A DNA stretch of 4,320 nt from Escherichia coli (GCF_003334315.1 NZ_QOWR01000100.1), one strand, 5' to 3'; shown: positions 3,772 to 4,290, counted from the stretch's first letter. Numbers and translations are program-made. Notes: generated by a model from the letters alone, not told the origin.

Positions 3772-4290
3772 ATGAAGTGTTTCTGGGCTTGCTCAGTCTC
3801 AGTAGTTTTGGTTATGTCATTTACAGTCGCTTCTGCGGAGAACATTACACACACAAAACCGTTAGCCAGGAGCGACTTATATCTTACCTGTAAAGGTTAT
3901 CAGGTGAAGGGGGCGTCTGTAATTAACGTCGAGAAACCTTCTTACCTTGAAGGTACAGGTGAGCAGGTTGAGTTTGCAATCATTTCTCTCGGTGATGCAT
4001 CTGATGGACTCAAGGTTTTTTTTGATTCATGGGGTTTTTCTCCTTTTGGATTGATTGAAAGTCATGTAATGCATGAGCACTGGTCTTTAGTTCATGTTGG
4101 GGGGCGTGTTTCAGTCAAGGGTGAAAAGATTGATTATTCATTTGTAGATAACCAGCCACAGGAGGGTGGGAGCTATAAACCCAAAACAGGTGTGTTCCTG
4201 TATGGCTGCATTAACTCTGATAAAAGGCCATCTTGGGTCGAAAAAATCTACACAAGAACAGGCGTGTTTCGAGGGGGCATAGAAGACTAA
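3772..4290 (+). CDS. Hypothetical secreted (periplasmic/exported) protein, 172 aa, Sec signal peptide; function unknown
   Basis: Full ORF. N-terminus MKCFWACSVSVVLVMSFTVASA|ENI is a typical Sec signal with an A-S-A cleavage motif. GAAAAGGGA lies upstream of the ATG. The start is only 24 nt after the mbeA stop on the same strand. The mature protein has two Cys (possible disulfide) and a His cluster HVMHEHWSLVH. The region is AT-rich relative to the backbone (not separately counted for this gene). Confidence 0.7.
   Translation: MKCFWACSVSVVLVMSFTVASAENITHTKPLARSDLYLTCKGYQVKGASVINVEKPSYLEGTGEQVEFAIISLGDASDGLKVFFDSWGFSPFGLIESHVMHEHWSLVHVGGRVSVKGEKIDYSFVDNQPQEGGSYKPKTGVFLYGCINSDKRPSWVEKIYTRTGVFRGGIED

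Follow-up and report, generated by a model that had tools for sequence, protein, structure and literature searches.

Small plasmids of the ColE1 type are often called cryptic, and finding a function for the genes they carry would explain how they benefit their hosts. One such plasmid fills a stretch of 4,320 nucleotides from Escherichia coli (GCF_003334315.1 NZ_QOWR01000100.1), referred to here as the window, in which an open reading frame (ORF) encoding 172 amino acids lies on the plus strand at positions 3772 to 4290, just behind the mobilization (mob) operon. An earlier reading of this sequence (the original prediction) described a secreted protein with a histidine cluster that could bind metal, two cysteines that could form a disulfide, and a possible, unusual coupling of a cargo gene to the expression of transfer genes. 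The ORF and the strings quoted for it (ESHVMHEHWSLVHVGG, YLTCKGY, and LYGCINS) are all present at these positions. The question raised by the locus is what such a protein does, and whether it does so in the service of transfer. The best overall explanation, to which we assign a rough probability of 0.4, is that the gene encodes a periplasmic protein, forms the last cistron of the mob operon, and has a protective role that is independent of mobilization.

The first 75 bases of the window recur at its end, showing that the sequence is a circular molecule of 4,245 bp read with an overlap. Plasmid pK of Salmonella Enteritidis (NC_003456.1) has the same sequence (100% identity), and identical plasmids are also found in E. 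coli. The gene itself is widely carried: of the 183 plasmid records that contain it, 180 have it intact, with intact defined as a single tblastn place spanning at least 80% of the protein, and the exact 172-amino-acid protein occurs in at least 1,000 contigs. Among 5,426 complete E. coli genomes, 24 have the gene, every one on a plasmid. Ratios of nonsynonymous to synonymous substitution (dN/dS), calculated pairwise for eight diverged copies using only pairs in which dS was not saturated, ranged from 0.12 to 0.39 and were mostly between 0.15 and 0.3. Because of these low ratios and the presence of the gene in 183 plasmid records, the ORF is a real gene under purifying selection.

Export is the feature of the protein that can be read with the most assurance. 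Conservation was counted in a 27-sequence alignment reaching down to 32% identity, in which 25 homologs have a complete N terminus. Residues 1 to 22 (MKCFWACSVSVVLVMSFTVASA, followed by E; positions 3772 to 3837, plus strand) form a signal peptide of the Sec/signal peptidase I type by hydropathy and the −3/−1 rule, with an n-region MK, an h-region CFWACSVSVVLVMSFTV, and an ASA/E site (the slash marks the cut) that obeys the rule. A charged n-region, a hydrophobic core, and an A-x-A/E site recur in 25 of the 25 complete homologs, which bears out the signal peptide originally proposed. The 172-amino-acid protein is thus very probably exported by the Sec route, and we are fairly confident in the predicted cleavage after Ala22 by signal peptidase I. 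Processing as a lipoprotein by signal peptidase II was considered and rejected; no lipobox of the form [LVI][ASTVI][GAS]C is present, as the FWAC at residues 4 to 7 precedes the h-region and Cys7 is replaced by Phe or Gly in some members.

The mature domain (positions 3838 to 4290 on the plus strand, stop codon included) would comprise 150 amino acids, with a mass of 16.7 kDa and an isoelectric point of 6.0. It is predicted to be mostly an antiparallel beta-meander or barrel with a C-terminal helix. AlphaFold2 modeling of this domain with the 27-sequence alignment, including the branch that is 32 to 40% identical, gave a predicted local distance difference test score (pLDDT) of 66.3 and a predicted template modeling score of 0.66. 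Long antiparallel strands were modeled at a confidence of 80 to 89, and the highly conserved loop at 85 to 100 fell below 50; modeling of the full precursor with 20 close homologs gave a pLDDT of 34 and was unusable. The two cysteines are invariant in all 27 sequences. Cys40 (codon at 3889 to 3891, plus strand; mature C18) lies on the first long strand of the model (E13-24), and Cys146 (codon at 4207 to 4209, plus strand; mature C124), its putative partner, lies on the last (E118-126). A closed meander would make the first and last long strands neighbors, making a disulfide that staples them together plausible. The Cys40-Cys146 bond suggested by the original prediction is thus likely on the basis of the model and gains from the conservation of both residues. 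Further invariant residues include Y58-L-E-G-x-G-E-Q65, W87, F89, G93, W104, L106, D121, Y122, F124, R152, P153, W155, F166, and G168.

The position of the gene relative to mbeA, the relaxase gene, bears on how it is expressed. The mbeA stop codon (TAG, 3745 to 3747) and the ATG at 3772 are separated by a spacer of exactly 24 nucleotides (3748 to 3771, plus strand), as the original prediction had stated. The spacer contains a ribosome-binding site, AAGGGA, at 3760 to 3765, six nucleotides ahead of the ATG, and by sequence has no promoter, terminator, or stable hairpin. A terminator scan between mbeA and the ORF was negative, again as proposed, and the RNA across the junction was predicted to be unstructured (z = +1.31). 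The built-in promoter scan returned no sites in the whole window, missing both RNAI and RNAII, and was replaced by a relaxed sigma-70 weight-matrix scan in which these two control promoters had the top scores (RNAII, 11.06; RNAI, 11.38). By comparison, the best score in the 220 nucleotides upstream of the ORF was 1.85, so no recognizable promoter is found there; an independent promoter combined with a terminator after mbeA was thus not detected by either scan. Lying on the same strand, 24 nucleotides away, and with neither promoter nor terminator between, the ORF has the attributes of a mob operon member. Because it has its own ribosome-binding site but no recognizable promoter, it is likely translated from the mob mRNA, and its sequence context makes cotranscription as the last cistron before the cer site reasonably probable.

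This junction is not peculiar to pK. The same order, an mbeA stop codon followed after 24 to 37 nucleotides by the ORF, is found in four lineages: pK, a group of 4,018-bp ColRNAI plasmids, a Hafnia plasmid, and a 101-kb Nissabacter plasmid. Between pK and the 4,018-bp lineage, nucleotide identity is 93.1% in mbeA, 93.3% in the ORF, and 100% in the spacer, and only 79% in cer. The matching divergence of the two genes and the identical spacer indicate, by sequence comparison, a long coinheritance of mbeA and the ORF. The GC content is 0.61 in mob and 0.43 in the ORF, the drop occurring at the mbeA stop codon.

On its other side, the gene is bounded by a cer-type Xer multimer resolution site that begins directly after the ORF stop codon. 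This site spans positions 46 to 238 on the plus strand (46 to 75 being the same DNA as 4291 to 4320) and was delimited by alignment to ColE1 cer (L019, 3734 to 3938) and four other copies. It has an ArgR box, TGCATGGCTATGCATA, at 98 to 113, an XerC arm, GGTGCGCCCAA, at 211 to 221, a 6-bp center, GGGATG, at 222 to 227, and an XerD arm, TTATGGTAAAT, at 228 to 238, all on the plus strand. An XerC arm, a center of 6 to 8 bp, an XerD arm, and about 180 nucleotides of accessory sequence with an ArgR box are thus all recognizable, marking the site as cer-type by sequence. The region has a predicted structure z score of −3.1, and the roughly 190 nucleotides 3′ of the stop codon are conserved in every ColE1-derived copy, including one in a Yersinia chromosome. 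In ColE1, cer directly follows mbeA, and in a 4,675-bp Salmonella plasmid that lacks the gene an Xer arm likewise lies close after mob, from which the ORF can be recognized as an insert in the slot between mbeA and cer. The cer site had been missed earlier, and with it in place the description of the gene as free-standing cargo no longer holds; by sequence, the 172-amino-acid gene is an insert of low GC content that fits exactly into the space from the mbeA stop codon to cer.

A survey of ColE1 plasmids has proposed oriT and cer as recombination points flanking the region from rop to the relaxase (PMC8683028). In such exchanges, a gene inside the oriT-mob-cer block would travel with the relaxase. 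On the far side of cer, a 4,105-bp Hafnia plasmid has an RnlA/RnlB toxin-antitoxin pair in the slot that a lipoprotein gene occupies in pK (L021, 2261 to 3678). Compared with pK, this arrangement shows that cargo on the far side of cer is swapped and that mbeA, the ORF, and cer remain together as a constant block.

Does the link to mob extend from position to function? Copies away from a working mob operon provide an answer. Klebsiella IncFIB megaplasmids have a 78% identical copy that is still preceded by the spacer, the TAG, and about 150 nucleotides from the 3′ end of mbeA, and the persistence of these sequences marks the copy as captured from a ColE1-type plasmid. A chromosomal copy in Yersinia intermedia shares only about 27 nucleotides upstream, beginning at the TAG and including the conserved spacer, and downstream homology stops a few nucleotides past the XerD arm. 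This end point suggests, from the sequence, that the Yersinia copy was captured by Xer- or insertion sequence (IS)-mediated recombination. More distant homologs, 32 to 40% identical, are encoded downstream of a GIY-YIG nuclease gene in about 100 nonmobilizable IncFIB phage-plasmids of about 110 kb (SSU5-like; Klebsiella, Enterobacter, and Citrobacter), some of which have been deposited as Klebsiella phages. A search for an Xer site close to these distant homologs was negative. In all of these settings, the copies are intact and under purifying selection. Since intact, selected copies persist where mob is a remnant or absent, the function appears independent of mob. The idea of a cargo gene coupled to transfer gene expression is therefore plausible with respect to position in the mob operon; the protein's function is probably not linked to transfer, and the coupling is probably positional rather than functional.

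Several features of these loci were recorded alongside. In the Klebsiella megaplasmids, gene callers fuse the mbeA remnant into an ORF of 77 to 94 amino acids that matches Pfam DUF2251 (L002, 5693 to 5977; L016, about 3850 to 4000); the remnant could be a relic, or could be kept as a promoter carrier. The Yersinia ORF and cer (L010, 4671 to 6730, in a 254-kb contig) lie beside an IS110-family transposase, and about 1.8 kb upstream of the ORF copy are genes for a bacteriocin-type C39-peptidase ABC exporter and its HlyD partner. Directly 3′ of the phage-plasmid homolog is a stretch of about 1.4 kb with no annotated gene or convincing ORF (Citrobacter L017, 4502 to 5937, with an equivalent in L018), which had no Rfam match.

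These observations can be assembled into a conditional model. The 172-amino-acid precursor would be exported by Sec to yield a periplasmic protein of about 16.7 kDa, whose mature domain would fold as a small beta-meander or barrel. DsbA would form the Cys40-Cys146 disulfide, stapling the first long strand to the last. In pK and its ColE1-type relatives, the gene would be translated from the mob operon mRNA as its last cistron. Once in the periplasm, the protein could act as a binder or inhibitor that shields the envelope of the carrier cell from an incoming bacteriocin, lytic enzyme, or competing element, and such protection would profit whichever element bears the gene. The size, export signal, and conserved cysteine pair suit known periplasmic immunity or inhibitor proteins. 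A protective binder or inhibitor, of the immunity or exclusion type, is favored because the protein is small and predicted to be disulfide-containing and periplasmic, is carried by two unrelated kinds of mobile element, is in places the sole cargo, and has no enzyme signature; we put it forward tentatively. A bolder and less probable form of the proposal is that the family represents a new class of periplasmic protective factor without close fold relatives, serving either as an orphan immunity protein against a bacteriocin or type VI secretion system effector or in superinfection or entry exclusion, and wired to the mob promoter in the ColE1 lineage. If this were true, a cell making transfer proteins would be protected simultaneously. 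The spread of a 4-kb plasmid that has no other cargo over at least six genera of enterobacteria would then be explained as well: the 4,018-bp plasmid is on record from Escherichia, Salmonella, Klebsiella, Shigella, Serratia, and others (six genera), and the 172-amino-acid ORF is the one gene that it has beyond its replication, mob, and cer backbone. Establishing a function would in addition annotate a family that extends over thousands of contigs, Klebsiella and Enterobacter phage-plasmids among them, and that all records examined label as hypothetical.

Some competing explanations question whether there is an exported, functional protein at all. The ORF could be a functionless hitchhiker or decaying gene, retained only by its place between two essential plasmid modules, and this would agree with the lack of a known function and with occasional damage: two Klebsiella megaplasmid copies (H56 and H57) require two tblastn pieces, a copy labeled Vibrio cholerae (P0003) has a frameshifted C terminus that reads on into cer, and in a Klebsiella copy (P0021) the N terminus is replaced. 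However, such an origin is very unlikely given the dN/dS values, mostly 0.15 to 0.3 over all nonsaturated pairs, the 180 intact records of 183, the retention of about 30 invariant residues down to 32% identity, and the maintenance of the gene after capture into megaplasmids and a chromosome, and the disruption in related plasmids that would mark a decaying gene is seen only occasionally. Even less probable is a cytoplasmic protein of 158 amino acids that starts at Met15 and is not exported. This is the coding sequence given by RefSeq on the pK record (NC_003456.1, record position 2764; WP_226564495.1), from which the signal peptide is absent. On an identical E. coli plasmid, however, RefSeq calls all 172 amino acids (WP_011017199.1), an inconsistent start call for the same DNA over window positions 3772 to 3813 (2722 to 2764 of the pK record), and on the 4,018-bp plasmids it gives full-length proteins of 172 to 175 amino acids. 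Most homologs have Leu or Ile at position 15 and thus lack this start codon, residues 1 to 14 are conserved, and the ribosome-binding site precedes Met1; for these reasons, Met1 is taken as the start. A periplasmic metal binder using the cluster H98/H101/H103/H108 (positions 4063 to 4095, plus strand) would accept export and differ in function. Four histidines within 11 residues exceed chance in pK's own sequence (shuffling, P of about 0.004), H108 (4093 to 4095) is invariant in 27 of 27 sequences, and the nearby E96 is nearly invariant. The cluster as a whole, though, is not a family trait. H98 is kept in 18 of 27 (otherwise Arg, Tyr, or Asn), H101 in 16 of 27 (otherwise Phe, Gln, Tyr, or Asn), and H103 in 5 of 27 (otherwise Asn, Ser, or Asp), with the phage-plasmid branch having Arg at 98 and Phe at 101. 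With only H108 invariant, a multi-histidine metal site is unsupported; the alignment offers fewer than three conserved histidine ligands, no metal-binding Pfam or NCBIfam family matched, and no metal homeostasis genes are linked. The metal-binding role raised by the original prediction is thus quite unlikely.

All three of these are less likely than two alternatives that concern what an exported protein might do. A transfer-related factor, with a part in mobilization or in excluding the entry of related plasmids, would explain the place of the gene in the operon. Exclusion genes are usually cotranscribed with transfer genes, ColE1 has exc1 and exc2 beside its mob region, and the annotation of mbeD reads mobilization/exclusion protein; the last-cistron position, the junction conserved in four plasmid lineages, and the codivergence with mbeA all point the same way. 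Against this, the protein has no similarity to ColE1 Exc1 or Exc2, canonical ColE1 and the 4,675-bp Salmonella plasmid do without the gene and have cer directly after mbeA, and intact, selected copies accompany a mob remnant, no mob at all, or nonmobilizable phage-plasmids. We regard a transfer role as doubtful. Just as doubtful is a barrel of the lipocalin, YceI, or LolA type that binds small ligands or lipids, or a nutrient capture protein, with a hydrophobic compound or a metabolite as its ligand in the periplasm. Of these possibilities, a periplasmic protein with a protective role independent of mobilization agrees best with copies that remain intact and selected in elements with and without mob.

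Database searches placed the protein in a small and largely isolated family. No match was found in Pfam, NCBIfam, PADLOC, or Protein Data Bank (PDB) sequence searches with the protein, its profile, or individual members, and the PADLOC models of antiphage defense returned no families at E values up to 1. The sole library match was phrog_31425, of unknown function (E = 1.7e-28; residues 10 to 161 against profile positions 8 to 162 of 172). A search of 5.8 billion proteins yielded 24 to 32 clusters, all unnamed and all from Enterobacterales except one record labeled Vibrio cholerae. Because a profile search of 1.84 billion representatives gave only 10 clusters, there appear to be no distant annotated relatives. 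The protein thus belongs to an uncharacterized, narrowly distributed family of exported proteins limited to mobile elements of Enterobacterales. Two marginal matches were discarded. A protein of 2,792 amino acids (P0031; E = 4.4e-5 summed over 15 stretches), highly repetitive and surface-type by its sequence, was judged to be repeat or compositional noise. Choline- or glucan-binding repeats (PF19127 and TIGR04035) matched a single stretch, 35 to 66, with an independent E value of 0.12 and 13.6 bits against a cutoff of 147.7, and with no tandem copies; the best family member reached E = 5.7e-3. Searches of the literature by protein and plasmid accessions found nothing on the 172-amino-acid protein. 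The name "macrophage stimulating factor" (MSF) has been used on ColE1-4kb plasmids of S. Heidelberg (PMC6118388). The published MSF primers have no match in the window or in any of the fetched loci, so the name belongs to another gene.

The remainder of pK is a compact mobilizable backbone with one further cargo gene. The replicon is ColE1-type, with RNAI at 1022 to 1122 on the minus strand (99 bits). The mob operon, on the plus strand, begins with a mobC/mbeC-type relaxosome accessory gene at 1938 to 2261 (an ORF annotated in RefSeq as a MobC family protein), upstream of which a candidate operon promoter, GTGCCA-16 nt-TACACT, lies at 1754 to 1781; in the weight-matrix scan it scored 8.16, the third best on the plus strand. 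The relaxase gene mbeA (2251 to 3747, plus strand) encodes an intact protein of 498 amino acids that matches NF047848 (relax_MbeA_E1) with 914.5 bits over profile positions 1 to 496 of 497. The ORFs of mbeB (2939 to 3424) and mbeD (3428 to 3643; NF033829 MbeD, 110 bits) are nested within it in other frames on the plus strand. On an identical plasmid, mbeA (L023, 2945 to 3262) is flagged by the Prokaryotic Genome Annotation Pipeline (PGAP) as "incomplete, missing C-terminus" although the ORF is intact with a full-length MbeA match, and this flag is probably an artifact of the nested mbeB and mbeD genes.

The second cargo gene (275 to 862, minus strand, GC content of 0.40) is convergent with the 172-amino-acid gene and encodes a 195-amino-acid protein with the lipobox ISGC. 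This lipoprotein had no Pfam or NCBIfam match and is similar to phrog_7678, of unknown function (E = 2e-19). The exact protein occurs in at least 1,000 contigs; its gene is found on other small plasmids without the 172-amino-acid gene, and a 57% identical version is present in Shewanella megaplasmids. A two-gene system composed of the two pK cargo proteins was rejected, as they are unrelated to each other and occur independently.

Comparison with known systems helps to place both the locus and the protein. The cer site of pK aligns with that of ColE1 over about 190 nucleotides, from the ArgR box and accessory region to the XerC and XerD arms, the latter identical, but the center is 8 bp in ColE1 and 6 bp in pK, and the ColE1 site abuts the mbeA stop codon where a 519-bp ORF intervenes in pK. 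The exc1 and exc2 genes of ColE1 are likewise accessory genes just beyond mbeA and cer, and Exc2 is a lipoprotein, mirroring pK, in which the secreted protein is accompanied by a lipoprotein. However, neither pair shows sequence similarity, the exc genes are on the opposite strand beyond cer and outside the operon, and Exc1 has no signal peptide. Homology of the 172-amino-acid protein to Exc1 (WP_181411554.1) or Exc2 (WP_001254967.1) was accordingly rejected (BLASTP E = 14 and 18; hhalign probability, 0.1%). The pesticin immunity protein Pim of pPCP1, likewise encoded on a ColE1-type replicon, is a small exported protein (141 amino acids) that has two cysteines in addition to its signal peptide, and it has a similar AEKN-TYT stretch right past the cleavage site. 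Homology to Pim was rejected as well, with an hhalign probability of 1.4% and an alignment limited to the signal peptide and about 20 residues; no bacteriocin gene adjoins the 172-amino-acid gene in pK or in the other contexts. Eight-stranded soluble beta-barrels, such as the C-domain of NHBA, the barrel lobes of TbpB, HpuA, and fHbp, YceI, and the PliC-like PhiA, are counted among the closest known systems. The one library family that matches, phrog_31425, corresponds to the phage-plasmid homologs that are 32 to 40% identical. Its phage-plasmid members differ in lying downstream of a GIY-YIG nuclease gene instead of a mob operon and in having no Xer site nearby, but, like the pK protein, they have the signal peptide, the two cysteines, and the roughly 30 invariant residues.
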